Source of the DNA: Candidatus Omnitrophota bacterium
Lineage (GTDB): Bacteria; Omnitrophota; Gorgyraeia; Gygaellales; Profunditerraquicolaceae
Reading direction: 5' to 3'
Assembly (NCBI GenBank): GCA_026387315.1
Contig: JAPLLY010000049.1
Coordinates: 11,883 to 75,882, forward strand
Length of the DNA: 64,000 nt
Shown here: positions 5,874 through 34,676 of the stretch, one piece after another
How the letters are laid out: every line of letters starts with the position of its first letter
Numbering within the stretch: position 1 is the first letter of the stretch
Notes under the pieces: model-generated
The model's input: only the letters and a program-made list of their open reading frames with translations
Databases searched by the model: none
What the model was told of the DNA's origin: nothing
Made by a program: the position numbers and the translations under genes

Positions 5874-6341
5874 GTGAGGTGTCCTTCTTGCGGAAATAAA
5901 GAAGATAAGGTGGTGGATTCCCGCGCTACAGCCGAGGAGTCAGCCGTCAGGCGCAGAAGAGAGTGTTTAAAGTGCGGCAAGCGGTTTACTACCTATGAAT
6001 ACGTGGAAGAGGTTTCTTTGCTGGTGATTAAGAAAGACGGCCGCCGAGAGGCCTTTGACCGCAAAAAGATTTTGGCTGGCATAATTCGCGCTTGCGAGAA
6101 AAGGCCGGTGAGCGTGGAGAAGATGGAAAATGTGGTTACCCAGGTTGAGCACTCCATCCAGAAAAAAAGCGATCGGGAAGTTCTAGCCAGCCGGATCGGC
6201 GAGCTGGTTATGGAGAAACTAAAATTAATTGACGACGTAGCCTACGTGCGCTTTGCTTCCGTATATCGCCAGTTTAAAGATGTGGGCCAATTCATGGTGG
6301 AGTTAAAGGATATTTTGGGCAAAGATAAAAAGAAGAGATAA
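5874..6341 (+). CDS. nrdR: transcriptional repressor NrdR
   Basis: 155 aa. N-terminal zinc ribbon MRCPSCG...CLKCGKRFTTYE plus an ATP-cone (VIKKDGRREAFDRKKI). Confidence 0.95.
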   Translation: MRCPSCGNKEDKVVDSRATAEESAVRRRRECLKCGKRFTTYEYVEEVSLLVIKKDGRREAFDRKKILAGIIRACEKRPVSVEKMENVVTQVEHSIQKKSDREVLASRIGELVMEKLKLIDDVAYVRFASVYRQFKDVGQFMVELKDILGKDKKKR

Positions 6342-6430
6342 GGGCTAGTTGGTCCTGAAAACACCCAAGCCACCCGCTAGCTGCGCATTTTGAGTTTGCC
6401 CAGAATAAGGTGCGGAAGTAAAGGTGGGAG

Positions 6431-6465
6431 GGGGCAGTTCTTGAATGAGGGCTGCCCCTTTTTTA
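6431..6465 (+). terminator. rho-independent terminator after nrdR
   Basis: GGGGCAG-13 nt-CTGCCCC followed by TTTTTTATTT. Confidence 0.6.
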
Positions 6466-6519
6466 TTTAGTTAGATTTTGCTAGCTCTTACGTCTATTGG
6501 CAGTAGAAGGAGGAATAAA

Positions 6520-7023
6520 ATGACTGATTTGATACCTATCGAATTGATATCAACCAAGATTTTGATATTAAGAGGGAAAAGAGTAATGTTGGATAAGGAT
6601 CTTGCTAAACTTTATGCTGTGCCTACAAAGGTTCTAAATCAATCTGTAAAAAGAAATATAAGGCGCTTCCCGATTGATTTTATGTTTCAATTAACAAAGT
6701 TAGAAAAATTGGAACTGGTCACAATTTGTGACCGGTTCAGGCTTTTGAAACATTCGACTGTTGAGCCTTATGTTTTCACAGAACAGGGCGTAGCGATGTT
6801 ATCAAGTGTGTTAAATAGCGAAAGAGCCATTTTGGTGAATATCCAGATTATGCGCGCATTCACTCAATTGCGCAGAATGCTTTTAACTAATGTAGATCTC
6901 AAGCGTAAAATTGAAGAAATGGAGCGTAAATATGATAAGCAATTCTTGATTGTTTTTAAAGTTATAAAGGAGCTCTTGGAGCCTCAGCCTATCCCTAATA
7001 AACCACCAATTGGATTCCGTTAA
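6520..7023 (+). CDS. ORF6N/ORF6C (KilA-N-like) DNA-binding protein
   Basis: RGKRVMLDKDLAKLYAVPTKVLNQSVKRNIRRFPIDFMFQL and FTEQGVAMLSSVL are typical of the ORF6N domain. ATG 6520 follows GGAGGA; the track start 6478 is less likely. Confidence 0.8.
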   Translation: MTDLIPIELISTKILILRGKRVMLDKDLAKLYAVPTKVLNQSVKRNIRRFPIDFMFQLTKLEKLELVTICDRFRLLKHSTVEPYVFTEQGVAMLSSVLNSERAILVNIQIMRAFTQLRRMLLTNVDLKRKIEEMERKYDKQFLIVFKVIKELLEPQPIPNKPPIGFR

Positions 7024-7033
7024 GTCAACACAG

Positions 7034-7231
7034 ATGAATATCGGGGAACAAATAGCGCAATTAAGGCATAAGGCAAGAATGAGCCAATTGGAACTGGCTA
7101 AGAAAGTCTCTACCAGCAGAACCGCTATAGCCCGCTATGAAAGTGGAGATTACAATAGATATAACGTGGGTACTTTGGCCAGAATCGCCCGGGCTTTGCA
7201 TAAGAGACTGAAAATATCATTTTCTGCTTAG
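7034..7231 (+). CDS. XRE-family helix-turn-helix regulator (possible controller protein)
   Basis: IGEQIAQLRHKARMSQLELAKKVSTSRTAIARYESG is a classic Cro/C1 HTH. ATG 7034 is preferred over the track start 7010. Confidence 0.75.
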   Translation: MNIGEQIAQLRHKARMSQLELAKKVSTSRTAIARYESGDYNRYNVGTLARIARALHKRLKISFSA

Positions 7232-7241
7232 CTTCTCGTAA

Positions 7242-7278
7242 TTACATCTTCCACAAAATGTAAAGCCATAAATTACAT
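7242..7278. promoter_or_regulatory. three TTACAT/ATGTAA half-sites between the XRE gene and the DpnI-like gene
   Basis: TTACAT (7242-7247), ATGTAA (7258-7263) and TTACAT (7273-7278), spaced 10 and 9 nt apart. Operator-like arrangement. Confidence 0.3.
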
Positions 7279-7455
7279 TGAAACCATGTCAAAAGAGAGT
7301 AAAATAAAAGTATCAAATATAGAAGTTAAGCAGGTAAATATATGATAGATGATCTAGAGTGGTATCGTTTGAAGGGGGAACTGCCACGTAAAAATAATTA
7401 AAACATTCGCTAGGAATAGCGGAGGTTTCTTGTTTTTTGAGGAGTAATTTTATAA

Positions 7456-8226
7456 ATGAAATTGGCTTTTAATAAACAGATTGCGCAGTCATATCACAGT
7501 GTTTCTCAGAAAATTCGTGTAATGGCGGAAGATTGGGTTAGCCGCGAAATCTTTTGTCCCGCCTGTGGTTGTAACATTAAACATTACGAAAATAACAGAC
7601 CTGTTGCTGATTTCTTTTGTTTAGATTGTAAAGAAGAATTTGAGTTAAAAAGTAAAAAGGATTCTATTGGTAACAAAATTGTAGATGGCGCGTATAGAAC
7701 GATGATTGAGCGGCTGCAAAGTAATAATAATCCTAATTTTTTCTTTCTAAATTATCACCTAAGAAGTTTTGAGGCCATAAATTTTTTCGTTATACCAAAG
7801 CATTTTTTTGTACCGCAGATAATTGAGAAAAGAAAACCTCTCGCTTTATCGGCAAGAAGAGCCGGTTGGATTGGATGTAATATTCTTCTGCAAAGAATCC
7901 CAGTTTCAGGAAGAATATTTTTGGTTAAGAACGCCCATGTTGAGTCGAAACAAAAAGTTCTTCGGGATTGGAAAAAGACCTTATTTTTAAGAGAAGAAAA
8001 AGATATAAAATCAAAAGGTTGGATTATTGATGTAATGAATTGTATCGAGCAGTTGGCCAAAAAAGAATTTACTCTTGATGAAGTTTATAATTTTGAAGCT
8101 GTTTTGCAGACCAAACACCAGAGCAATAGGCATATTAAAGACAAAATCCGCCAGCAGTTGCAGGTGCTTAGAGATAAAGGTTATTTGGAATTCGTTAGAA
8201 AAGGGCAATATAGAGTAATAAAGTAG
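7456..8226 (+). CDS. DpnI-like methyl-directed type IIM restriction endonuclease
   Basis: 256 aa. Long collinear matches to DpnI as I remember it: YCPxCG...NRPVADFxCxxCxEEFELKSKK, DGAYxTMxxRxQxxNNPNFFFL, RKPLAxxARRAGWIGCNI, GRIFLV, and a C-terminal winged helix HIKxKIRQQLQxLRDK. Confidence 0.85.
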   Translation: MKLAFNKQIAQSYHSVSQKIRVMAEDWVSREIFCPACGCNIKHYENNRPVADFFCLDCKEEFELKSKKDSIGNKIVDGAYRTMIERLQSNNNPNFFFLNYHLRSFEAINFFVIPKHFFVPQIIEKRKPLALSARRAGWIGCNILLQRIPVSGRIFLVKNAHVESKQKVLRDWKKTLFLREEKDIKSKGWIIDVMNCIEQLAKKEFTLDEVYNFEAVLQTKHQSNRHIKDKIRQQLQVLRDKGYLEFVRKGQYRVIK

Positions 8227-8241
8227 ATTAAGGAATTAATT

Positions 8242-8484
8242 ATGAATTTAGCTTTAAAAATACCCGCGTTTAGCGTGAAATTATTTTTGTGGTTGTCTCT
8301 TCCATTCAGTGATGATAATTTCGTGGTGGTTTGTAAAGGATACGGTGACGATTGGGATTATTATACCGGTTTATATTGGTATGAGGATAAAGATTTGGAA
8401 ACATGCTGGTATGAGGATTATCAAATTTGGTTATCCATAAATAAATCTTTTATCAAGAAATATTTATGGACGAAAATAAAGTAA
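8242..8484 (+). CDS. hypothetical W/Y/D-rich small protein
   Basis: 80-aa ORF 16 nt after the DpnI-like stop. No recognisable family. It occupies the position that dpnD holds in the pneumococcal DpnI cassette. Confidence 0.4.
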   Translation: MNLALKIPAFSVKLFLWLSLPFSDDNFVVVCKGYGDDWDYYTGLYWYEDKDLETCWYEDYQIWLSINKSFIKKYLWTKIK

Positions 8485-8564
8485 ATAAAAAAATATTATG
8501 TAATGAAAATGCGTTATTACCGCCATTGCTTAGCAATTTTATAGACTAGAGGGAAAGGGAAATT

Positions 8565-8726
8565 ATGGAAGATATTATTTGTCCTAAATGTAACGATGTG
8601 ATTAGGCCTGATAATGATTGGGATTTTATGGATGGTGAAAAACGTAAAATATCTTGTTTTTGTGGGCATAAATTCGTAGTTATTATCGAGCGGCCGATTG
8701 AATACTATATACTAGAGTCGGCATAG
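8565..8726 (+). CDS. 53-aa zinc-ribbon protein (not in the ORF track, below the size cut-off)
   Basis: ATG preceded by GGGAAAGGGA. Translation MEDIICPKCNDV...ISCFCGHKFVVIIERPIEYYILESA has CxxC...CxC. A paralogous 3' fragment lies at 9704-9779. Confidence 0.45.
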   Translation: MEDIICPKCNDVIRPDNDWDFMDGEKRKISCFCGHKFVVIIERPIEYYILESA

Positions 8727-8801
8727 TAGAAAGCTTTGTCTGTAAATTTTTAAAAATAGAAACGTTCAGAATTTAAATCTAAGTCTCTGAGAGGTAATAC
8801 A

Positions 8802-9668
8802 ATGTCATTTTCAGAAAACATTAAATTACAAGTAAAAGAAAAAGCTGCTTTTCGTTGTTGTAGGTGTCAGAATATAGGCATAGATGTTCATCATATTACT
8901 CCAGAAAAAGATGACGGACTCGATGATATTAGTAATGCAGCTCCTTTATGTCAGAATTGCCATGATCAATTTGGCGACAATCCTTCGAAACGAAAAGAGA
9001 TGGTTCAGATGAGGGATTGGTGGTATAAAAAATGCGAAATCAAATATTCAGCGCAGGATGTTATGTTGATGAGAGAAATGGTTTCAAAATTGGAAGAGAT
9101 TAAACATGGTAGCCAATCAGGAATTAATGAGTTAAAGCAAATTTTGAGAAATATACACAACAAAACTACTGATAAAGTAATTGATAAGCTATCTCGAGAA
9201 ACTGCTGATGCTACTGCTTCTGCAATAGTAAATAGCATTGATGCGATAGAACTTAGTCAGAAGCCATTCTTCTACGTTTATTACCTAGAAGAAGATTATT
9301 CATATCAAACTTCCATGAAAGGTAGAAACTTTAAAAATAAATGGTTTACATTGGAAGAAGATGGAAAAATGACAATAAAAAAAGGCTATGTATGGGATGG
9401 GTGCCCTCCAAAATATAAGATACGTGATCTTTATATCGGATTACAAGAAGGCTGTATAAATTTTGAAACAGGGAAAAGCAAAACTTATTATGCGTCTTTA
9501 GTTCACGATGTCTTTTATCAATTTAGCGTAGACATTAGATCGCTTGTTAGCCGTGGGGATGTCGACTACGAATTTTATTTACTGCTAAAGAGAGATAAAT
9601 TTACTTTCGCAGCACTTTATTACTTTAACGTACGATTATTTGGCTGGGTATGGTGGAATAGGAATTAA
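8802..9668 (+). CDS. HNH endonuclease fused to a C-terminal domain resembling DUF1353
   Basis: The N-terminus CCRCQNIGIDVHHITPEKDDGLDDISNAAPLCQNCHDQF is an HNH motif. The C-terminal GYVWDGCPP...SLVHDVFYQ resembles DUF1353; that assignment is tentative. Confidence 0.8.
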   Translation: MSFSENIKLQVKEKAAFRCCRCQNIGIDVHHITPEKDDGLDDISNAAPLCQNCHDQFGDNPSKRKEMVQMRDWWYKKCEIKYSAQDVMLMREMVSKLEEIKHGSQSGINELKQILRNIHNKTTDKVIDKLSRETADATASAIVNSIDAIELSQKPFFYVYYLEEDYSYQTSMKGRNFKNKWFTLEEDGKMTIKKGYVWDGCPPKYKIRDLYIGLQEGCINFETGKSKTYYASLVHDVFYQFSVDIRSLVSRGDVDYEFYLLLKRDKFTFAALYYFNVRLFGWVWWNRN

Positions 9669-9703
9669 GTATAGTGTTCCCTAATTTCCCTGATTTCAAA
9701 GTA

Positions 9704-9779
9704 ACTTGTTCCTGTGTGACATCAATTCTTAGTTATCATAGAGAGGCCGATTGAGTATTACGTGTCAGAGGCAAATTAG
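9704..9779 (+). pseudogene. frameshifted 3' remnant of a paralog of the 8565-8726 zinc-ribbon gene
   Basis: It reads ..TCSC then, after a 1-nt shift, HQFLVIIERPIEYYVSEAN*. The intact copy reads SCFCGHKFVVIIERPIEYYILESA*. Confidence 0.5.
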
Positions 9780-9856
9780 AAAAAAATAACGGTTGTTTTT
9801 TTTTGCATGCAGCGGCCGGAATCGCTGTGTAGGAAAGAATTGTTTTAGTAATTTGC

Positions 9857-10069
9857 GTGGAGACAAAAATGAAGATAAATAAATGTACGGAATGCGGGGG
9901 CGAAGACTTTTTTATTGAAGAAATGATTATTCATAAAGCTTCTCTTTATGCAGAAGATAAAGAATTGACCGTTTACAAAGAACAGACGTCCGGAATAGAA
10001 AGAATATATTGCACAAATTGTGATACAGAGTATTCGGAAGACGATTTTAAAAAAATAAATTTCAGATAG
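9857..10069 (+). CDS. small zinc-ribbon protein
   Basis: KCTECGG ... YCTNCD pairs of cysteines. An ATG at 9869 after GGAG is an alternative start. Confidence 0.5.
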   Translation: METKMKINKCTECGGEDFFIEEMIIHKASLYAEDKELTVYKEQTSGIERIYCTNCDTEYSEDDFKKINFR

Positions 10070-10129
10070 TGCTAATAATTCCGAGAGCTATTCCGGAGAT
10101 ATGCTACATAATTATTAGATCGATCTTTA

Positions 10130-10440
10130 GAACTAAGTAATGAGCGTCCGCTGAATGAATCGGGATAAGTCAGATAAGCAGACGCTTTCGCGCGCCAAGA
10201 TAAGCTCTTTGTAATCTAGCTGATTGAGATGTATCAGCCACAGCAATTTCCTGTTTAGCTGTGTAGCCTGGAGTGAGGATAAAGGAGCAATCCTTAAGCC
10301 TAAGCCACTCAACAAACCCGCCTTGCAAACCCGCCTTGGGCGGGGAGGCAAATCAGCAGACCGTAATGTGAATGAACCCGGATGTAGCCTCGTCACTCTA
10401 ATAAGTAGAGATGACCTCTTGAAAGTGGAGGGAAATCTAA
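10130..10440. other. GC-richer non-coding block with multiple short hairpins (candidate structured RNA or decayed gene)
   Basis: Hairpins seen: GCTGAT-8-ATCAGC, CACAGC-12-GCTGTG, CCCGCC-TTG-GGCGGG. Tandem AAACCCGCCTTG x2 (10314-10339). The only ORFs are low-complexity and overlap on both strands. Confidence 0.2.
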
Positions 10441-10876
10441 TAACTACTCTTTAAGGTAACAGGAAAACATAAGAATGGTTCTACTCGGGGTAGCAGGGAC
10501 GGTATGCTGGAAAAGATTAAAAAGGGAACTTGGGAGAGCCATTATAGCACAAGACATCTTCATATAAGGCAAAAACCGAAGTTGAGGAAATATTTAAAGA
10601 GATATTAGAGGTTACTCTTTCTCGTCAAGATAATAAAAGATAGCTTTTGGTGTTTTTTCTTTTTTTTAACGCGTTGATGATGGTTGGACTGAGCGTTCCA
10701 AGCTCAATAGAGGAAGAAGAAGAAACATTGACAAATAGTGATTTTTTGTATAACCTGTTATTTTTTAGGTAGACATTGGTTTTTATAAGCGGTTTTTCTC
10801 TCATAAAAAAAGTATATCATAATTTTAATATAAAACAAGGGCAATAAATAGAAACGGTCACTAGCTTTATTGAACC

Positions 10877-10893
10877 GTCGACAGTTTGTCGAC
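10877..10893. promoter_or_regulatory. perfect 7-3-7 inverted repeat GTCGACA-GTT-TGTCGAC upstream of the PLD gene
   Basis: Located 31 nt upstream of ATG 10924. Candidate operator. Confidence 0.3.
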
Positions 10894-10923
10894 AACTGAA
10901 ATTACTTTATAAATAACCAAAAA

Positions 10924-12516
10924 ATGAGACAACGTTGTTTTAAAATAGTATTTTTTATTATCCTTGCTTTGGCGTGTACAGCGAGTGCGGGGATTTTTTA
11001 TTGTTATGCTGAAGCTGTAAAAACACAGGGACAGTCCCCTGCGGGGACAGTCCCTGTTATGGGGACGCAGGCATTCGTTGAAGACTTAAGCGGGGATAAG
11101 TATTTTCCTGGGGTTAAAGAGGCTTTAGCAAAGGCGAAAAGCTCGATATATATGATGATGTATCTTGTAAATTTTGATGAAAAATCAAAGAAGTCTTTGG
11201 TTAATCAACTAGTTGATGAATTAGTTAACGCGAATAAACGGGGAGTCAAGGTAAAGGTAATCCTGGACCAGAATATTAGTTATATTAATTTGGGAAAGGG
11301 AAATGGTGAATGGGAGAGGGAAGAGAAAAATGAACCCTTGTTTTTATACCTAAAGAAGAATGGGATAGAGGTGTATTATGATAATCTTTTTATAACTACT
11401 CATAGTAAGGTTATGATTATTGATGAAGAAACAGTGATTTTGGGGAGCGCCAACTGGACGATGTCTTCTTTGAAAAGGAATTGGGAGGGGTCTTGTCTAA
11501 TCAGATCTAAAGAACTAGCCAAAGAATTCCTAAAAGATTCTGCTTCGATCTCCATAGATTATGAGGCAAGTATTCTTGACGAAGAAAGAAAGCCGCCGGT
11601 GCTGTTGAATCAGTATCTACTAAGGACTCCATCTTTAGTTCCCCATATGCTTACGAGTAATGATAAAGGGGCGTTTGATGTATATATGCTCTTATTGCGA
11701 AACTATGATAGTAATGCAGAAGGGAAGGTAGAAGTTGATTATAAGGTTTTTAGCCAGGAATTAGGTTATGATAAAAAATTGACTTATCGTTCAGCCAGTA
11801 AGAAAATAATGGGGGCTTTAGCGCGGCTTGAGCAGAGATATCAGCTTATTCTGCGTCAGAAGAGGCCCGCAAAAGGCCCTAATGTAATATTATTGGATTA
11901 TCCTAATAAAAGTCCGTATGTTTTATCTCGGGATGAGTATTTTTCTATTCCGGATGAATATTGGAAATATGGCTGGAATAAGAAGTTTTTATTTCGGGAG
12001 AGCTATTGTTATTTTATCGCGCGCTGTAAAGCAGGCGGCGTGAAAGGGCATATTTGGCGCGAGCATATAATCGGCTTAAGTAAGGAGTTTAATATAAACA
12101 GGAATACGATAGCAACGGGGATGCAATCTTTAAGAATGCTAAATATAATCGAGATTGACTATGCTCCCTATCTTCCTGAGGAAAATTTTAGGCATAGGGA
12201 AGCAAGTTTATTTAAATTGTTTAGGCTTTATTCTCCGGAGATTTTAGAAAAGGATAAGCAGAGGGTGAGAGAGTTATATGGTAAGAGCCGTTTTGAAGAA
12301 GCTGAAAGATTCGCCAAGATAGTTTTTAAAGGTAATGATACTCAAGTCATTGAAGATATTATCAAGAAAATAGATGAATATGGCGCTAAGCAGGTTAAGG
12401 ATGCTTTTAAGACTGTTTCTTTGAAGTCCATAGATAATCCGAAAAGAAGTTACAAATATGTAGTGGGGGTGCTTCAGAGTAGAGCTGAGGAAGCGGAAAA
12501 GGAGGAGTTAAGATGA
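10924..12516 (+). CDS. single-HKD phospholipase-D-family nuclease fused to two winged-helix-like modules and a DnaD-like C-terminus
   Basis: N-terminal hydrophobic anchor or signal (FKIVFFIILALACTASA). HKD motif HSKVMIIDEETVILGSANWT. Central and C-terminal replication-initiator-like wHTH segments (GLSKEFNINRNTIATGMQSLRMLNIIEI). The tail NPKRSYKYVVGVLQS resembles the DnaD/DnaB_2 motif. Confidence 0.75.
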   Translation: MRQRCFKIVFFIILALACTASAGIFYCYAEAVKTQGQSPAGTVPVMGTQAFVEDLSGDKYFPGVKEALAKAKSSIYMMMYLVNFDEKSKKSLVNQLVDELVNANKRGVKVKVILDQNISYINLGKGNGEWEREEKNEPLFLYLKKNGIEVYYDNLFITTHSKVMIIDEETVILGSANWTMSSLKRNWEGSCLIRSKELAKEFLKDSASISIDYEASILDEERKPPVLLNQYLLRTPSLVPHMLTSNDKGAFDVYMLLLRNYDSNAEGKVEVDYKVFSQELGYDKKLTYRSASKKIMGALARLEQRYQLILRQKRPAKGPNVILLDYPNKSPYVLSRDEYFSIPDEYWKYGWNKKFLFRESYCYFIARCKAGGVKGHIWREHIIGLSKEFNINRNTIATGMQSLRMLNIIEIDYAPYLPEENFRHREASLFKLFRLYSPEILEKDKQRVRELYGKSRFEEAERFAKIVFKGNDTQVIEDIIKKIDEYGAKQVKDAFKTVSLKSIDNPKRSYKYVVGVLQSRAEEAEKEELR

Positions 12517-12857
12517 TGCAATTTTTGGTCAGGTGGGGAATTGGCGCGTTGTCGATTTTTATTGTCGCGCACATTGTCAGGGGTATCGAGGTTTCCAGCA
12601 CCGCTACTGTCCTGGTGATTGCTCTGGTCTTGGGGATTATTAACGCTTTCTTGAGGCCTTTGATTATTCTGATTACTCTGCCGATTAATATCGTTACTTT
12701 AGGGGTATTTACCCTTTTTATCAACGGCGCTCTTTTTCTTCTGGTGTCTAAAATTGTCAAAGGCTTCGTGATTACGGGTTTCTGGCCGGCTTTTTGGGGC
12801 TATATCCTTTTCAGCATTATTAGTTTCTTGTTAAGCCTTTTAGTTGTTTCTGTTTAA
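12513..12857 (+). CDS. phage-holin-IV/DUF360-like four-TM membrane protein
   Basis: 114 aa with four hydrophobic helices. GIINAFLRPLIILITLPINIVTLGVFTLFINGALFLLVS is typical of this family. The ATG overlaps the PLD-gene TGA (ATGA at 12513-12516). Confidence 0.7.
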   Translation: MMQFLVRWGIGALSIFIVAHIVRGIEVSSTATVLVIALVLGIINAFLRPLIILITLPINIVTLGVFTLFINGALFLLVSKIVKGFVITGFWPAFWGYILFSIISFLLSLLVVSV

Positions 12858-12883
12858 ACCTAGGGAACGTTTTGGGTTATTTT

Positions 12884-12927
12884 AGATTCTTCGCCCGCCA
12901 CAGAATTAATGGCGGGCTCAGAATGAC
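12884..12927 (-). repeat. family-D nested hairpin (GTCATTCTGAG...-type, reverse orientation)
   Basis: ATTCT...AGAAT outer stem around a GCCCGCCA-9 nt-TGGCGGGC inner stem. Confidence 0.6.
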
Positions 12928-12936
12928 GAAAGGGAA

Positions 12937-13689
12937 ATGTCTAAATATTACACTGGCAGAAAAACCAAAAATTTATTTGATCCTCACAGTAAATTCCCCT
13001 TTAGGTTAAGCCGTTCTAAAATCGAACTATTCATGAATTGCCCGCGGTGCTTCTACTTGGATAGAAGATTAGGGGTGGGGCAGCCGCCAGGGTATCCGTT
13101 TACTTTAAACTCCGCGGTAGATAAATTGTTGAAGAAAGAATTTGATATCTATAGAGAAAAGCAGGCAGTCCATCCGCTTATGGAAAAGAATGGCATTAAG
13201 GCGGTTCCTTTTAGACACGAAAAGCTTAATTCTTGGCGGGATGCTCTGCATGGCGGGATAGAGTATTTACACGCGCCGACAAATCTTTTATTTTCAGGCG
13301 GAATAGATGATCTCTGGGTTTCAGCGGATGGCCAGCTATTTATCGTGGATTACAAGAGCACTTCCAAGGAAGAAGAGGTCAATATTGACGCGGATTGGCA
13401 GATCTCCTATAAGAGGCAGATGGAGATATACCAGTGGTTGTTCAGGAGAAATGTTTTTGTTGTGTCTTCAACGGGTTATTTTGTGTACTGTAACGGATTG
13501 ACCGATAGGGATGAATTTGGGGCTAAGCTGGATTTTAATATCAAGATCATACCTTATATTGGGGATGACAGTTGGATAGAGGGTACAATATTAGATCTAC
13601 ATAAGTGTTTAATGAGCGATATAGTTCCGGTAAGCGGCCAGGATTGCGATTTTTGTAAGTATGCCCAGGGAAGAAAAAGTGTGGAGTAA
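12937..13689 (+). CDS. Cas4-like PD-(D/E)XK nuclease with predicted Fe-S cysteines
   Basis: GGIDDLWV...FIVDYKST (D..D/ExK) and QMEIYQWL (QxxxY). Cys pairs CPRC near the N-terminus and CDFC at the C-terminus. Confidence 0.75.
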   Translation: MSKYYTGRKTKNLFDPHSKFPFRLSRSKIELFMNCPRCFYLDRRLGVGQPPGYPFTLNSAVDKLLKKEFDIYREKQAVHPLMEKNGIKAVPFRHEKLNSWRDALHGGIEYLHAPTNLLFSGGIDDLWVSADGQLFIVDYKSTSKEEEVNIDADWQISYKRQMEIYQWLFRRNVFVVSSTGYFVYCNGLTDRDEFGAKLDFNIKIIPYIGDDSWIEGTILDLHKCLMSDIVPVSGQDCDFCKYAQGRKSVE

Positions 13690-13737
13690 AGAGAAGGCCG
13701 CCTGGCACATTGTTTTTTTATCTAATGGGGGTAAGAT

Positions 13738-14091
13738 ATGTTTGAACTAAAACACCAAAAAATAGCTCCGGCTCCGGTATTCATAAAAAGGTTATTTATA
13801 TTTATTGGAATTGCCATTCTTTTGATCCTATTCGCTTTGTTTATTGGTATCGCCGGATATCATTGGATCGCTGGTTTTAGTTGGGTTGACGCGTTACTAA
13901 ACGCGTCAATGATCTTAGGCGGCATGGGCCCGGTTAATCCGCTGGTTAACGCCGGCGCGAAAATATTTGCCTCCGTATACGCTCTTTTTAGCGGCCTGGT
14001 ATTTATCGCGGTAATGGGAATTGTTTTTTCGCCAATTGTGCACAGAATGCTGCATAAATTTCATATCGATGACAGAGATTTACAGAAATAA
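13738..14091 (+). CDS. small 2-TM pore-loop (ion-channel-like) membrane protein
   Basis: TM1, then FSWVDALLNASMILGGMGPVNP, then TM2. This mirrors a K+-channel pore module, but the filter is MILGGMGPV instead of TVGYGD. Confidence 0.5.
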   Translation: MFELKHQKIAPAPVFIKRLFIFIGIAILLILFALFIGIAGYHWIAGFSWVDALLNASMILGGMGPVNPLVNAGAKIFASVYALFSGLVFIAVMGIVFSPIVHRMLHKFHIDDRDLQK

Positions 14092-14094
14092 TAA

Positions 14095-14233
14095 AGATAC
14101 CGCTCAAAAACTTGCGGCGCATATTAAAAAACTGGGGCAGTGCCGGAAGTGCCGGGGTATGTATCCTCCGGTGGTCAGCGGCGGCGCGGTGGTGTTAGTG
14201 CAGGCGCCTCATCGGAATTCCGGGGGCAGCTGA
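14095..14233 (+). pseudogene. possible decayed N-terminal fragment of a family-4 uracil-DNA glycosylase
   Basis: LAAHIKKLGQCRKCRGMYPPVVSGG..LVQAPHRNSGG loosely follows the UDG4 pattern CxxCxL...VxGxG...VGExPGxxEDxxG. It has no start codon of its own and is truncated. Confidence 0.25.
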
Positions 14234-14239
14234 TTAGAA

Positions 14240-14299
14240 TGGAAACTGTTTGATTGGAAACCGTTTGATTGTTGATTGTGCGCGGTTAAGTGGTATAAT
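14240..14299 (+). promoter_or_regulatory. tandem 15-mers plus extended -10 promoter upstream of azoR
   Basis: TGGAAACTGTTTGAT (14240-14254) and TGGAAACCGTTTGAT (14255-14269), then TTGATT (14272-14277), 16 nt, and TGgTATAAT (14291-14299). Confidence 0.4.
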
Positions 14300-14338
14300 A
14301 ATTTTAAAAATTAAGGCTATAGAGAGACGGAGGCAGGC

Positions 14339-14959
14339 ATGAAAAAACTTTTGCATATTATTGCCACGCCGCGCGCGGAGGAATCGCGCACATTGCAAGT
14401 ATCAGAGGCCTTCCTTAAAACTTTTAAGGAAAAACATTTGGATTGGGTTATTGATGAGCTGGATCTCTCTAAAGAAGAATTGCCTTCTCTTACCGTAAAG
14501 CGTTTAGATGGTAAATACATGCTTGCGGGAGGAAAAGACCTTAATGGAGAAATGAAAGAGGCTTGGCAGGAGATTGTCGTCCAGATCGAGCGGTTTATGT
14601 CGGCGGACGCCTACCTTATCAGTACTCCGATGTGGAATTTTAGTATTCCTCACAGATTAAAGCATTATCTGGATGTAATTTTACAGCCCAAATACCTGTT
14701 TCGTTATACGCCGACGGGAGTTGAGGGATTGGTGAAGAATAAAAAGCTAGTGGTAATCACCAGCCGTGGCGGCGACTATACAGATACCATGCGCAGCGCT
14801 GATTTTCAAGAGCCATATCTTCGGTTTGTTTTTGGTTTCATGGGTATTCAAGATATTACTTTTATTAATGCGCAACCCATGGATATGGGAGAGCCAGTGC
14901 AGGCGCAAAAAATAAAAGAAGCGCAAGAGGCGGCAAAAAAGATCGCCGCGCGATTGTAA
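14339..14959 (+). CDS. azoR: FMN-dependent NADH-azoreductase
   Basis: 206 aa. Flavodoxin-like N-terminus KKLLHIIATPRAEESRT, with PMWNFSIP and SRGG motifs. Confidence 0.85.
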   Translation: MKKLLHIIATPRAEESRTLQVSEAFLKTFKEKHLDWVIDELDLSKEELPSLTVKRLDGKYMLAGGKDLNGEMKEAWQEIVVQIERFMSADAYLISTPMWNFSIPHRLKHYLDVILQPKYLFRYTPTGVEGLVKNKKLVVITSRGGDYTDTMRSADFQEPYLRFVFGFMGIQDITFINAQPMDMGEPVQAQKIKEAQEAAKKIAARL

Positions 14960-14973
14960 AACCAGGGGGAGCA

Positions 14974-15387
14974 ATGATTGAGATGGAGTTAAGTAAGATT
15001 GTGATTGATGAGAAGAGGCATGATCAGTTGATTGCTTTAAAAGAAAAGGGGGGCACTAGGGTTTTACCGATTATTATTGGTTTAAATGAAGCCTCAGCCA
15101 TAAAATTAAAGATCAGCGGTTTTAATCCTCCGCGGCCATTGACCCATGATTTAATTTTTATGATTATTAAGGATTTTGAGGCGACCGTGGAAAAAGTTAT
15201 TATTGATAAGTTAGAAGAGAATACTTTTCACGCTAAGATTATTATTAAAACTGCCGGCGGTATTTTAAAGGCCATTGATGCCCGGCCAAGTGATAGTATC
15301 GCTTTGGCGGTGAGGTTTCACGCGCCGATCTTAGTTGAAGATGAGATTATCAAGCAGTATGAGCTGTTTAATAAAGAAAAAACTTAA
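14974..15387 (+). CDS. bifunctional nuclease family protein (DUF151)
   Basis: RPLTHDL and IDARPSDSIALAVR..APILV are signature segments. Confidence 0.85.
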   Translation: MIEMELSKIVIDEKRHDQLIALKEKGGTRVLPIIIGLNEASAIKLKISGFNPPRPLTHDLIFMIIKDFEATVEKVIIDKLEENTFHAKIIIKTAGGILKAIDARPSDSIALAVRFHAPILVEDEIIKQYELFNKEKT

Positions 15388-32846: not shown

Positions 32847-34676
32847 ATGAAGAAGAAAAGACTGTTAATTCTATTATTAGTTTTATTTTTTCCAGTTTCT
32901 ATATTTGCGGAAATAATTGTACTTAAGTCTGGCAAAACAGTAGAAGGAAAATTCATTGAAAAGACAGATAAGTATATAAAGATAGATTTTCAAGGCGTCC
33001 CATTGATATATTATATTGATGAGATTGAGAGTATTGATGGGGTAATACAAAACTCGCCCTTAATAAAAGAAAAAAAATCATCACAAGAAAATAATACTGC
33101 TTCAGGTGAAGTAGGAATCAAGATAGTGAATATAAAAAGCAATGAATTATTTAAGGATAGAAGTATGAATTCTATTATTTATTACCAAGATGGGAGGGTA
33201 CTAGAGGTAAAAATAGTAAGCAGGGTTAAAGATTCGGTGGTTTTGGAGGTAATGCCTGGTGTAGATGCCAGAATAGATATGAAGGGCATTGATTCAATAG
33301 AGACAATTGTTCCAAATTTGCTTAACAACGTCTATATTAATGAAAATTACGGCATTTCTATGAGGGGGCCGAAAGATTGGGTTATGGTTACTCCGGAAGG
33401 TTATTATAAAGAAGCGATAAAATGGGATAAAAGCCAGCTGGTGTATTTTCATAAACATCCGATTGAAGAGTATAGGCTTAAGGGCAAAATTGATTCATTC
33501 ATTAGTGTGGTGGTAGATGAAGATCATCCATCTATAAATACTGCTTGGGATTATGCCCAGCAAAGAGCGCGACTTTTTAAAAAAGCGCTGCCGGATATTC
33601 TAATAGATGGGCCGATAGAAATTGATTTAAACGGTAGAAAATGGGTAAAATTAGGAATACAATCACGATTAGAGCCGTTTAATATGAGACAATTAAATTA
33701 TTTTTTGTTCCGTGGGAAAGCGATATTCTGGATCTCTTTTGGTGATACTCCCGATGATTTTGAGCGGGAGTTGCCTGTTTTTCAAGAGTCATTGAATAGC
33801 CTGGAGCTGATTGAGGTTGGAGGCATTAATAGAGTAAAGCAAAATTTCACTTCAACAAAAGAAAAAGCATTGTTTCATGAAAATAATTGGGCCCCTATCG
33901 ATTCTAAGGCCGCGGAAGAATATTTAAATCACGGAGTTGCCTCCGATAAACAAAGTAATTTTTCCAAAGACATCTGCGACTATACTAAAGCTATTGAAAT
34001 TAATCCTAAAAATGAAGAAGCTTATCATAACCGTGGGTCTATCTATGTTAGACAAGGTAACTTTTCTCAAGCCATCTTTGATTTTACCAGAGCTATTGAA
34101 ATAAACCCTAACAATGCAGAGTCCTATAACAACCGCGGGTTTGTCTATGCTAACCAGGGTAGTTTCATCCAAGCCATATCTGATTTTGCTAAAGCTATCA
34201 AAATTAATCCTAACTTTGTAGAGGCTTATCAAAATCGCGGGCTTGCCTACGTTCAACAAGATAACCTGCCTCAAGCTATATCTGATTATACTAAAGCCAT
34301 TGAAATTGACCCTAGTTATGTAATAGCTTATAATACCCGTGGGCTTGCCTATAGCAAGCAAGGAAACTTTACTCAAGCTATTTCTGATTATACTAAAGCC
34401 ATTGCAATAAAACCTAATTACATAGATGTTTATTTTAATCGCGGGATTATTTTCTTAGAGCAAGGTAATTTACCTCACGCCATCTCCGACTTAACCAAGG
34501 TTGTTGAAATAAATCCTAATGATGCAAGGGCTTACCGCAACCGTGCGCTTGCCTATTATGCGGAAAAAGAATATGACTTGGCTTGGGCAGATGTGCATAA
34601 GGCAGAAGAGCTAGGATTGGCTGTGAATCCTGAAATCCTTAACACACTTAAGAAAGCATCGGGGAGGGATAAATAG
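32847..34676 (+). CDS. secreted TPR-repeat protein
   Basis: ATG 32847 after AGGAG gives the signal peptide MKKKRLLILLLVLFFPVSIFA. The C-terminal third holds about 8 tandem 34-aa TPR units (AISDYTKAIEI.P....AY.NRG). Confidence 0.8.
   Translation: MKKKRLLILLLVLFFPVSIFAEIIVLKSGKTVEGKFIEKTDKYIKIDFQGVPLIYYIDEIESIDGVIQNSPLIKEKKSSQENNTASGEVGIKIVNIKSNELFKDRSMNSIIYYQDGRVLEVKIVSRVKDSVVLEVMPGVDARIDMKGIDSIETIVPNLLNNVYINENYGISMRGPKDWVMVTPEGYYKEAIKWDKSQLVYFHKHPIEEYRLKGKIDSFISVVVDEDHPSINTAWDYAQQRARLFKKALPDILIDGPIEIDLNGRKWVKLGIQSRLEPFNMRQLNYFLFRGKAIFWISFGDTPDDFERELPVFQESLNSLELIEVGGINRVKQNFTSTKEKALFHENNWAPIDSKAAEEYLNHGVASDKQSNFSKDICDYTKAIEINPKNEEAYHNRGSIYVRQGNFSQAIFDFTRAIEINPNNAESYNNRGFVYANQGSFIQAISDFAKAIKINPNFVEAYQNRGLAYVQQDNLPQAISDYTKAIEIDPSYVIAYNTRGLAYSKQGNFTQAISDYTKAIAIKPNYIDVYFNRGIIFLEQGNLPHAISDLTKVVEINPNDARAYRNRALAYYAEKEYDLAWADVHKAEELGLAVNPEILNTLKKASGRDK

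Follow-up and report, generated by a model that had tools for sequence, protein, structure and literature searches.

What occupies the DNA downstream of nrdR in this genome, and does it form one unit? The window analysed here is the whole stretch of 64,000 nt from Candidatus Omnitrophota (assembly GCA_026387315.1, contig JAPLLY010000049.1, positions 11,883-75,882, forward strand), in which the genes lie nearly throughout on the + strand. The initial annotation had described, between nrdR and the azoreductase-like gene azoR, an AT-rich block with four nuclease folds, and had proposed a defence island or a decayed integrative element containing genes of no nameable defence system. We find an ordinary defence-type accessory island, which is neither one element nor a new multi-nuclease system. 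The interval between nrdR and a conserved BFN-domain (DUF151) gene is very probably a chromosomal hotspot of gene turnover, occupied in this genome by a three-layer mosaic that includes a DpnI cassette. The term defence island is appropriate for it, in the sense of accessory, horizontally shuffled hotspot DNA rich in defence-type genes.

The limits of the interval were obtained by synteny. The window NrdR protein was used to retrieve the best 80 loci (species), all of them Omnitrophota metagenome-assembled genomes (MAGs) or MAGs mislabelled as "Planctomycetales", and the window proteins were compared with these loci by tblastn. The core proteins of close relatives are ~84-97% identical to those of the window. 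The left flank, composed of p353, p152, glyA, the dCMP deaminase gene and nrdR, is conserved throughout the 80 species loci. In ~65 of these 80 species, the BFN-domain gene comes within ~50-250 bp after nrdR, and the next gene encodes a CCA-adding-type enzyme of 481 aa. The island proteins, including AzoR, are not found near nrdR in those species, save ORF6N in L003 (L-numbers designate the compared Omnitrophota loci and P-numbers homologous proteins). This adjacency defines a variable interval of 8.6 kb (6342-14973). The accessory block proposed between nrdR and azoR was therefore correctly recognized as such, since it is not core synteny in relatives, but its right limit has to be moved to 14973, with azoR inside. 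Nucleotide homology to most relatives ends at 6342-6408, close to the terminator that had already been noticed after nrdR. The borders are as follows:

5874-6341: nrdR, left flank of the interval.
6426-6463, + strand: nrdR terminator (17-bp stem, then a T-run), at the left edge of the variable interval.
14974-15387, + strand: BFN-domain (DUF151) gene, conserved right flank (PF02577 in relatives).

The composition of the DNA divides this interval. The GC content falls from ~0.47 at nrdR to 0.31-0.37 up to ~10000, displays a bump of 0.42 at 10000-10500, remains at 0.32-0.39 to ~12500 and then rises to 0.41-0.46. The segment 6466-10069 has a GC content of 0.342, against 0.421 +/- 0.019 (minimum 0.376) in other segments of 3.6 kb, and a tetranucleotide distance of 0.339, against 0.161 +/- 0.021 (maximum 0.213). 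Module A (~7026-10900, GC 0.34) is ~4 standard deviations low in GC and ~8 standard deviations off in tetranucleotide usage. From the gene of a phospholipase D (PLD)-family protein to that of a Cas4-like nuclease, the tetranucleotide distance is borderline (0.252 against 0.184 +/- 0.025, maximum 0.254). The genes of the holin-like protein, the Cas4-like nuclease, a 117-aa membrane protein (TM117) and AzoR have ordinary GC contents (0.41-0.44) and ordinary GC at third codon positions (GC3). The AT-rich character first attributed to the whole block is thus real for ~6466-12500 only, and the composition is clearly atypical in 6466-10069 and ordinary in 12513-14959.

In relatives, the same site carries other genes (percentages are identities with the window proteins):

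L003, after nrdR: ORF6N, RadC, a helix-turn-helix (HTH) protein, RecQ, a toxin-antitoxin pair and type III Mod/Res.
L001 and L058, after nrdR: HTH protein and RecQ.
L002, after nrdR: an intact uracil-DNA glycosylase (UDG).
L168, on one contig: RadC, RecQ, ORF6N, HsdM/S/R (type I restriction-modification, R-M) and PLD (82%).
L081 and L082: HsdR, a 138-aa DUF1353-like protein, PLD (82%), Cas4-like (91%), holin (93%), DUF6036, a 226-aa protein, ABC-F, BFN and CCA.
L167: LOG, PLD (79%), Cas4-like (88%), HtrA, BFN and CCA.
L169: N6-methyltransferase and DpnII-family endonuclease, further genes, PIF1 helicase, Cas4-like (91%), further genes, TM117 (91%), UDG, an S4-domain protein, BFN and CCA.

L169 is a contig of 366 kb (JGI Ga0494756_0000002) with core proteins 89-95% identical to those of the window. 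The slot between nrdR/ORF6N and PLD/Cas4-like contains type I, type III or DpnII-type R-M genes or, in the window, an XRE-family regulator gene and the DpnI gene. The content of module A is present in no relative. Module B (10921-14193) is common to sister genomes at 79-93% aa identity. At the amino acid level, the PLD, Cas4-like and holin proteins are 82%, 91% and 93% identical to those of L081, and the core BFN, CCA and 810-aa proteins 92%, 87% and 79%. Because the former values are core-like, the block has diverged together with the genome.

The interval consists of three layers. The first is a genome-specific low-GC cassette (~7026-10900) of XRE, DpnI and solitary or decaying mobile DNA. 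The second is an older, clade-inherited block (10921-14193) with the PLD, holin-like, Cas4-like and TM117 genes and a UDG pseudogene, which was locally reshuffled. The third is azoR, an independent insertion that covers the 3' part of the UDG gene. The reshuffling has left a visible junction. Only this genome has the order PLD-holin-Cas4-like, L081 having PLD-Cas4-like-holin, and among the loci with both genes PLD and holin adjoin here alone. The match of the PLD gene to L081 stops at 12499, and the match to the region upstream of the holin gene begins at 12497. From this break at ~12497-12499, the ATGA overlap between the PLD stop and the holin start (12513-12516), which had been taken for translational coupling, is a rearrangement junction; the assignment of the two proteins themselves (PLDc_2 and PF04020) stands. 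Marks of decay are an intron fragment, a zinc-ribbon pseudogene, the UDG pseudogene and an HNH::DUF1353 fusion.

The cargo would be swapped by homologous recombination between nrdR/ORF6N on the left and PLD/Cas4-like/BFN on the right, with no site-specific integrase. This mechanism is the most economical one because integrase, att sites and tRNA gene are all missing: no integrase or recombinase gene is present among the ORFs of 6342-14973 (ORF list and profile searches), no tRNA gene was found in the window, and no att-like flanking direct repeats were found, the repeats spanning the block being short and at chance level.

Several points weigh against the hotspot and its DpnI cassette as described here. 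Recombination through the flanks is deduced from the missing integrase and att sites. All the compared genomes are metagenome-assembled, and the contigs of the closest relatives (L001, L002, L004 and L058) often break within the hotspot, so that these comparisons are partial. The GC content of the PLD gene (0.38) is below the window mean, and an older foreign origin of this gene is possible. The role of ORF6N and XRE as regulators of the cassette is a guess. No methylase-like ORF with the motif [DNS]PP[YFW] was found, but this search covered the 64-kb window only. Finally, GATC occurs 161 times in the window against 228 expected, a mild under-representation that is uninformative; GATC depletion was consequently rejected as a proxy of the methylation state.

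The left part of the interval contains three proteins with clear family assignments, and the regulators and the DpnI-like enzyme reported initially were all recovered by profile searches:

6520-7023, + strand: ORF6N (KilA-N-type) DNA-binding protein (Pfam ORF6N, E 4e-29; called start 6520).
7010-7231, + strand, probable start 7034: XRE-family HTH regulator (HTH_31 and HTH_3, E 1e-9 to 6e-10).
7456-8226, + strand: DpnI-family type IIM restriction endonuclease (Pfam DpnI, 1.3e-79 over residues 1-180; DpnI_C, 9.2e-32 over residues 186-253).

ORF6N matches the PADLOC candidate PDC-S05 (E 9e-58) and an 'anti-repressor' of PHROGs. It is 93% identical in aa and 90% in nt to the gene that follows nrdR in L003, and the homology stops at 7026; the gene is an older resident of the hotspot. 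The XRE protein shows a weak match to the R-M 'Control_protein' (E 5e-6) and has no counterpart at the same locus in the 80 species loci. Its gene opens the genome-specific cassette and, placed upstream of the DpnI gene, may control it.

The DpnI homologue aligns over residues 1-255 of 256 with the PADLOC model mREase_II (6.6e-116), and it is the only one of the ten ORFs submitted to PADLOC with a full-length system match. It aligns with R.DpnI (PDB 4ESJ) over residues 1-254 (phmmer, E 5.3e-90). In this alignment the motifs CPxCG...CxxC, PVADF and EEFELKSKK are identical, and both the Cys4 site and the PD-(D/E)XK motifs are kept (catalytic residues assigned from PMC3424567 and from our own reading). 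The protein is a singleton when ~15 billion proteins are clustered at 90% identity, the gene has a GC3 of 0.315, and neither DpnI nor azoR nor the 80-aa ORF described below has a counterpart in any fetched locus. The profile matches and the alignment identify an intact DpnI orthologue, the one recognisable intact defence gene of the cassette. From what is established for the DpnI family (PMC3424567, PMC4117772), the enzyme is predicted to cut GATC carrying N6-methyladenine, for example in Dam-methylated phage or plasmid DNA. It would need no partner methylase, since the host would leave GATC unmethylated; no methylase gene adjoins the DpnI gene.

In L169, the genes of the N6-adenine-type methyltransferase and of the DpnII-family endonuclease are located directly after nrdR (L169:3668-5459), at the site which holds DpnI in the window. 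The locus seems to hold complementary GATC cassettes in the two genomes, comparable to those of pneumococcus. Elsewhere, the BFN and CCA genes of L023 flank a methyltransferase gene (L023:11289-12164) whose product shares 76% identity with the methylase of L169. No DpnII-type endonuclease was detected with it, and this site may be a second insertion point occupied by an orphan methylase.

The rest of the low-GC cassette is composed of small or decaying elements:

8242-8484, + strand: orphan ORF of 80 aa with two Cys only (singleton cluster).
8565-8726, + strand: Cys4 zinc-ribbon protein of 53 aa (motif CPKC...CFC).
8802-9668, + strand: fusion of an HNH endonuclease (aa 1 to ~155, HNH E 2.5e-7) and a DUF1353-like domain (~155-288).
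9704-9779, + strand: pseudogene that repeats the C-terminal half of the 8565-8726 gene with a frameshift (direct repeat D1).
9857-10069, + strand, probable start 9869: Cys4 zinc-ribbon ORF (motif CTEC...CTNC).
10220-10371, + strand: group II intron relic, D1-D4 segment (RF02003, 66.4 bits for a gathering score of 49).

Three tiny Cys4 ORFs had been listed here. Two of them keep this description (8565-8726 and 9869-10069), and the third (8242-8484) has only two Cys and no match in Pfam, PADLOC or PHROGs. At relaxed Pfam thresholds, the small ORFs and TM117 gave only sub-threshold or noise-level zinc-ribbon matches. The 8565-8726 protein has copies at least 90% identical on three other contigs. 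The direct repeat D1 joins 8667-8732 and 9720-9785 (71% identity), with the translations HQFLVIIERPIEYYVSEAN and HKFVVIIERPIEYYILESA, each ended by a stop codon. The HNH::DUF1353 ORF is accordingly bracketed by an intact and, just after HNH, a decayed copy of one gene.

The HNH domain announced in this region is present, but in a fusion protein. The HNH half is 50-65% identical to a widespread family of stand-alone HNH proteins of ~183 aa, present in several phyla; the two homologues examined are solitary, amid unrelated genes and IS110 transposases. The C-terminal half shares 60% identity with the product of a separate 138-aa gene found immediately upstream of the PLD gene in L081, L082, L090 and L145; its profile matches are phrog_1158 (E 1.7e-13) and, at a weak level, DUF1353 (E 6e-4 to 0.1). 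The architecture of 288 aa was found in this genome only. Its simplest reading is an in-frame deletion that would have joined an inserted HNH gene to a resident DUF1353-like gene. Several metagenomic proteins of ~353 aa combine this solitary HNH domain with DarT (single-stranded DNA thymidine ADP-ribosyltransferase, PF14487), and fusions to STAS occur also (homologues of the window segment 8802-9270: P0157, P0166, P0170, P0178, P0183 and P0192).

The gap of 850 nt between the HNH and PLD genes had been considered as plain non-coding DNA; it contains the intron fragment. Positions 1-138 of RF02003, the full model, are matched (E 4e-13 to 5e-14), with a local GC content of 0.42. A sensitive Rfam scan of 9650-10950 revealed no further intron parts, the domains D5/D6 (Intron_gpII, RF00029) gave no match in this segment even at E <= 10, and no reverse-transcriptase ORF accompanies the relic. 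No related copies of the gap sequence were detected by blastn against 166 loci and the window, and 10130-10480 folds with no unusual stability (z = -1.5). The fragment is a non-functional stump.

The right part of the interval contains the older block and azoR:

10924-12516, + strand: protein with a signal peptide, a single-HKD PLD domain, a RepE-like tandem winged helix and a helical tail (PLDc_2, E 5.6e-26).
11026-11058, + strand: hairpin-forming element of 33 nt (GGGACAGTCCC twice) in the linker after the PLD signal peptide (insertion at alignment columns 60-90).
12513-12857, + strand: membrane protein with four transmembrane (TM) segments, PF04020 ('Phage_holin_4_2', E 1.3e-29, residues 1-104 of 105).
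12937-13689, + strand: stand-alone Cas4-like PD-(D/E)XK nuclease (PDDEXK_1, E 5.6e-12).
13738-14091, + strand: TM117, membrane protein of 117 aa, family unassigned (91% identical to the gene before UDG in L169).
14069-14233, + strand: pseudogene, N-terminal remnant of a family-4-type UDG (the frame breaks after ~45 aa).
14339-14959, + strand: azoR, FMN-dependent NADH-azoreductase-like gene (NCBIfam azoreductase subfamily, E 3e-33, below cut-off).

The PLD protein has 530 aa, of which ~300 form a C-terminal RepE-like module. The motif H160-x-K162-x4-D167 and the following GSxN (G174, S175 and N177) are invariant in 34 homologues. A single HKD motif implies dimerisation to build the active site. 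The best sequence and structure matches of the PLD domain are Nuc (1BYR), Zucchini/PLD6 (4GGJ) and NucT (6EHI). As this domain dominated the comparison of the full-length model with the PDB, residues 216-530 were modelled separately with AlphaFold (predicted local distance difference test, pLDDT, 87.7; predicted template modelling score, pTM, 0.85). The model resembles RepE54 (7SGC, 1REP) and Rep (8AAN), with Foldseek E-values of 1e-4 to 3e-3 and target TM-scores of 0.54-0.62 over ~240 columns. Matches to Rep3_N at the sequence level were obtained for only 2 of the 34 members (E 0.017), and weak HTH_11, HTH_36 and Rep3_N matches in some members agree with the winged-helix fold.

An N-terminal hydrophobic segment, defined as a 15-mer with a Kyte-Doolittle value >= 1.8 within the first 35 aa, occurs in 100 of 108 full-length homologues and in 0 of 120 proteins in each of two control families. 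It is preceded by ~+2.4 charges and followed by a net-acidic region, and no further TM segment is present. The protein is probably an exported, DNA-binding Nuc-like nuclease, usually encoded in accessory regions.

The alternative which survives best, although we consider it unlikely, is that the PLD-RepE-like protein is a cytoplasmic restriction endonuclease of the BfiI/END type or a nicking replication initiator, the N-terminal helix being a membrane tether. The combination of PLD and a sensor is indeed known in BfiI, SauUSI and END (PMC12191111). The C-terminal fold matches that of the iteron-binding initiators RepE54 and Rep, four members have weak matches to RE_NgoFVII and several to HTH_11, HTH_36 and Rep3_N, and the genomic context is island-like. 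However, the charges on either side of the hydrophobic segment (+2.4 before, negative after) predict the N-terminus inside and the bulk of the protein outside, variants with no HKD domain or with two keep the leader, and the structural relatives Nuc, NucT and Zucchini are secreted or membrane-anchored (PMC5714352). There is also no methylase partner, no iteron-like repeats were seen near the PLD gene, and the family is not on viral contigs. We therefore argue against a cytoplasmic restriction enzyme, as well as against a component of a system with the holin gene, and keep the exported nuclease as the preferred reading.

The PLD family contains 181 homologues at E <= 1e-5, all of ~500 aa with full-length identities of 35-91%, and at least 280 metagenome loci. 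Every homologue with a source name comes from Omnitrophota, and members are located on chromosomal contigs of up to 1.87 Mb. The family was not found among 2.9 million IMG/VR viral contigs, which gave only distant, domain-restricted matches. A profile of the RepE-like module recovered 730 clusters at 50% identity. Most have one HKD domain, four have two, and some have none but keep the signal peptide. What seems to stay constant in the family is the exported winged-helix module. Variants with two HKD domains (P0422, P0447 and P0497) and with none (P0429 and P0436) all stand behind a signal peptide.

The neighbours of the PLD gene are not conserved across 86 loci, as judged by gene order and all-against-all clustering of neighbours. 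The exception is an ORF of 54 aa (MAEGGFLVKFDGKEVxRCYAVAFDYDEWQYTIN..., no signal peptide), immediately beside the PLD gene in 35 of the 86 loci (e.g. L083:9640-9804 and L123:5035-5199) and missing from the window. Its product, presumably cytoplasmic, might inhibit the exported nuclease or provide immunity to it, like NuiA or barstar. Frequent neighbours are AbiEi/AbiEii, R-M genes, HTH_36 proteins and serine recombinases. PADLOC matches to DrmC (DISARM) and MkoB/C (Mokosh) concern the PLD domain only (E 1e-8 to 1e-15). An assignment as DrmC was rejected (NF038319, 54 bits for a cut-off of 133), and no helicase or methylase partner of DISARM or Mokosh is present in the window or at the 86 homologous loci.

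We found nothing specific in the literature on the PLD-RepE architecture or on defence islands of Omnitrophota. It is conceivable, as a tentative proposal that may well prove wrong, that the PLD protein represents an undescribed class of Omnitrophota exported nucleases and, separately, that the nrdR-proximal slot is a locus of complementary DpnI/DpnII-type cassettes. The PLD protein could act in the periplasm or at the surface, either destroying incoming DNA or harvesting host or environmental DNA for host-dependent nanobacteria. The element of 33 nt in its linker has copies 94-100% identical in L001, L010, L027, L085 and L168, where they are intergenic and terminator-like, and in L001, L010 and L168 just downstream of nrdR; it looks like a small palindromic mobile element whose in-frame insertion is tolerated.

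The holin-like protein belongs to a cluster of 134 members at 90% identity in Omnitrophota, and its counterpart in L081 (93% identity) is located after the Cas4-like gene. No endolysin, spanin or other lysis gene is near it, and it has no PHROG match. It is a conserved chromosomal membrane protein of the YvlD/holin family.

In the Cas4-like protein, IVDYK and QxxxY motifs can be recognised, together with four Cys that may bind an Fe-S cluster (C35, C38, C238 and C241), in a spacing of 2+2 where 1+3 is usual. The PDDEXK_1 assignment supports the nuclease proposed initially, but the comparison with Cas4 itself goes no further: Cas4 proper was rejected (TIGR00372, 30.4 bits for a cut-off of 65), there is no CRISPR/cas neighbourhood in the window, L081, L167 or L169, and no CRISPR array in the window. 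The family has at least 8000 homologues, in Omnitrophota and the Candidate Phyla Radiation (CPR), the top 120 clusters being 66-91% identical over the full length, and the gene is at the same hotspot in L081, L167 and L169. This strong conservation suggests a housekeeping-type role in DNA processing. With a conserved stand-alone Cas4-like protein and a PLD protein that is probably exported, the step from four nuclease folds to defence was overstated.

TM117 has 12 members in its 90%-identity cluster. The UDG remnant shows 83-85% nt identity to the start of the intact UDG genes of L002 and L169. The azoR gene takes the place of the 3' part of UDG and of the S4-domain gene of L169. It is not beside nrdR in any of the 80 species, is missing from L081, L167 and L169, and is a singleton at 90% identity; it is a separate recent insertion. 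Elsewhere in the window, unrelated to the island, a tandem array of ~4.3 copies of a 102-nt unit (33981-34417, 72% matches) lies in a 622-aa ORF, with a TPR-type-looking consensus.

A single decayed integrative element (prophage remnant, integrative and conjugative or mobilizable element) inserted downstream of nrdR and spanning 6466-13689 is improbable. It would account for the phage-type regulators ORF6N ('anti-repressor' PHROGs) and XRE, for the holin-family gene and for the low GC content. The group II intron relic and the HNH gene are typical passengers of mobile elements, and a large serine recombinase is encoded within 8 kb of the PLD gene at 7 other loci. The absence of phage structural genes observed at the outset extends, however, to replication and transfer genes in the block, in addition to the integrase, tRNA gene and flanking repeats already mentioned. 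The parts differ in age and in distribution among relatives, ORF6N, PLD, Cas4-like and TM117 being each common to different relatives beside different cargo, and the PLD family is missing from the viral contigs. The hotspot is thus preferred to the integrative element.

It is very improbable that HNH::DUF1353, zinc-ribbon, PLD and holin genes, the set for which no named system had been found, constitute one new defence system in which a nuclease/sensor would trigger permeabilisation by the holin (abortive infection): these genes are on one strand within 4 kb, with the ATGA overlap, a DUF1353-like gene is directly upstream of PLD in five loci (L081, L082, L090, L145 and the window, 36-82% PLD identity), PLD stands amid R-M and AbiE genes in many genomes and its domain occurs in the defence proteins DrmC and MkoB/C, but co-occurrence fails for the partners, the only neighbour conserved across the 86 loci being the 54-aa ORF that the window lacks, the holin gene follows PLD directly in the window only, at the breakpoint, where Cas4-like follows it in L081 and L167, the HNH half comes from a family whose members stand alone among unrelated genes, homologues of the zinc-ribbon ORFs are missing at PLD loci, the HNH and PLD genes are 850 nt apart with the intron relic in between, and the PLD signal peptide is ill-suited to a cytoplasmic sensor-nuclease.

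Clustered nuclease folds alone do not make a defence system. The interval between nrdR and BFN-CCA provides a concrete recombination hotspot in a phylum known from metagenomes only, Omnitrophota, with accessory and defence genes as its cargo, and allows the comparison of DpnI, DpnII-type, type I and type III restriction in near-isogenic backgrounds. The presence of DpnI and of a DpnII-type cassette at one site would extend the paradigm of complementary or dam-replacing cassettes of pneumococcus and Neisseria to a distant uncultivated lineage, and predicts opposite GATC methylation states in co-existing populations. The PLD-RepE-like family, large and uncharacterised, would put the DNA-binding fold of a replication initiator outside the cytoplasm.

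Compared with known systems, the DpnI-type enzyme shares with R.DpnI of Streptococcus pneumoniae and Drg of Neisseria a PD-(D/E)XK domain followed by a C-terminal winged helix, a solitary state without methylase and a position on low-GC DNA inserted at one constant site of the chromosome; in Neisseria, the drg locus has a GC content of 40.5% against 52% (PMC4269198). Pneumococcal DpnI and DpnII are alternative cassettes at one locus (PMC3812788, PMC3573125), and L169 likewise has a GATC-type methylase and a DpnII-family endonuclease at the site of DpnI in the window. In contrast to pneumococcus, the window has no dpnD-like second gene and carries XRE upstream instead, the host is an uncultivated member of Omnitrophota, and in other relatives type I and type III R-M genes occupy the slot as well, so that there is no strict two-state switch. 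The intron relic corresponds to the D1-D4-4 model of bacterial group II introns (RF02003 subclass), without domains V/VI and reverse transcriptase.

The PLD protein resembles Nuc (pKM101), NucT (Helicobacter pylori) and Zucchini/PLD6 in having only one HKD motif and in starting with a signal or anchor sequence, but Nuc and NucT are small single-domain proteins (~150-180 aa), whereas the Omnitrophota protein has ~300 extra residues and often the 54-aa ORF beside it. Its arrangement, with the PLD catalytic domain ahead of a DNA-binding module and a gene placed in a defence island, is that of BfiI, NgoAVII, SauUSI and END (PMC12191111). The protein differs from them by a predicted export leader, by the lack of a cognate methylase and by a module of the RepE type with two winged-helix domains (WH1-WH2), the BfiI-type modules being B3, EVE, iEndoIII or helicase domains. 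With the RepE/Rep_3 initiators it shares the tandem WH1-WH2 fold, and differs by its predicted signal peptide, its chromosomal location and the fact that no iterons were seen. At the scale of the whole interval, the conserved flanks, the variable content, the enrichment in R-M, toxin-antitoxin and Abi genes, the atypical composition and the pseudogene debris are those of defence islands and hotspots; this one differs by carrying no mobility gene and by including non-defence genes (azoR and UDG, as well as HtrA and an extracytoplasmic function (ECF) sigma factor in relatives) together with the long-resident PLD and Cas4-like genes.

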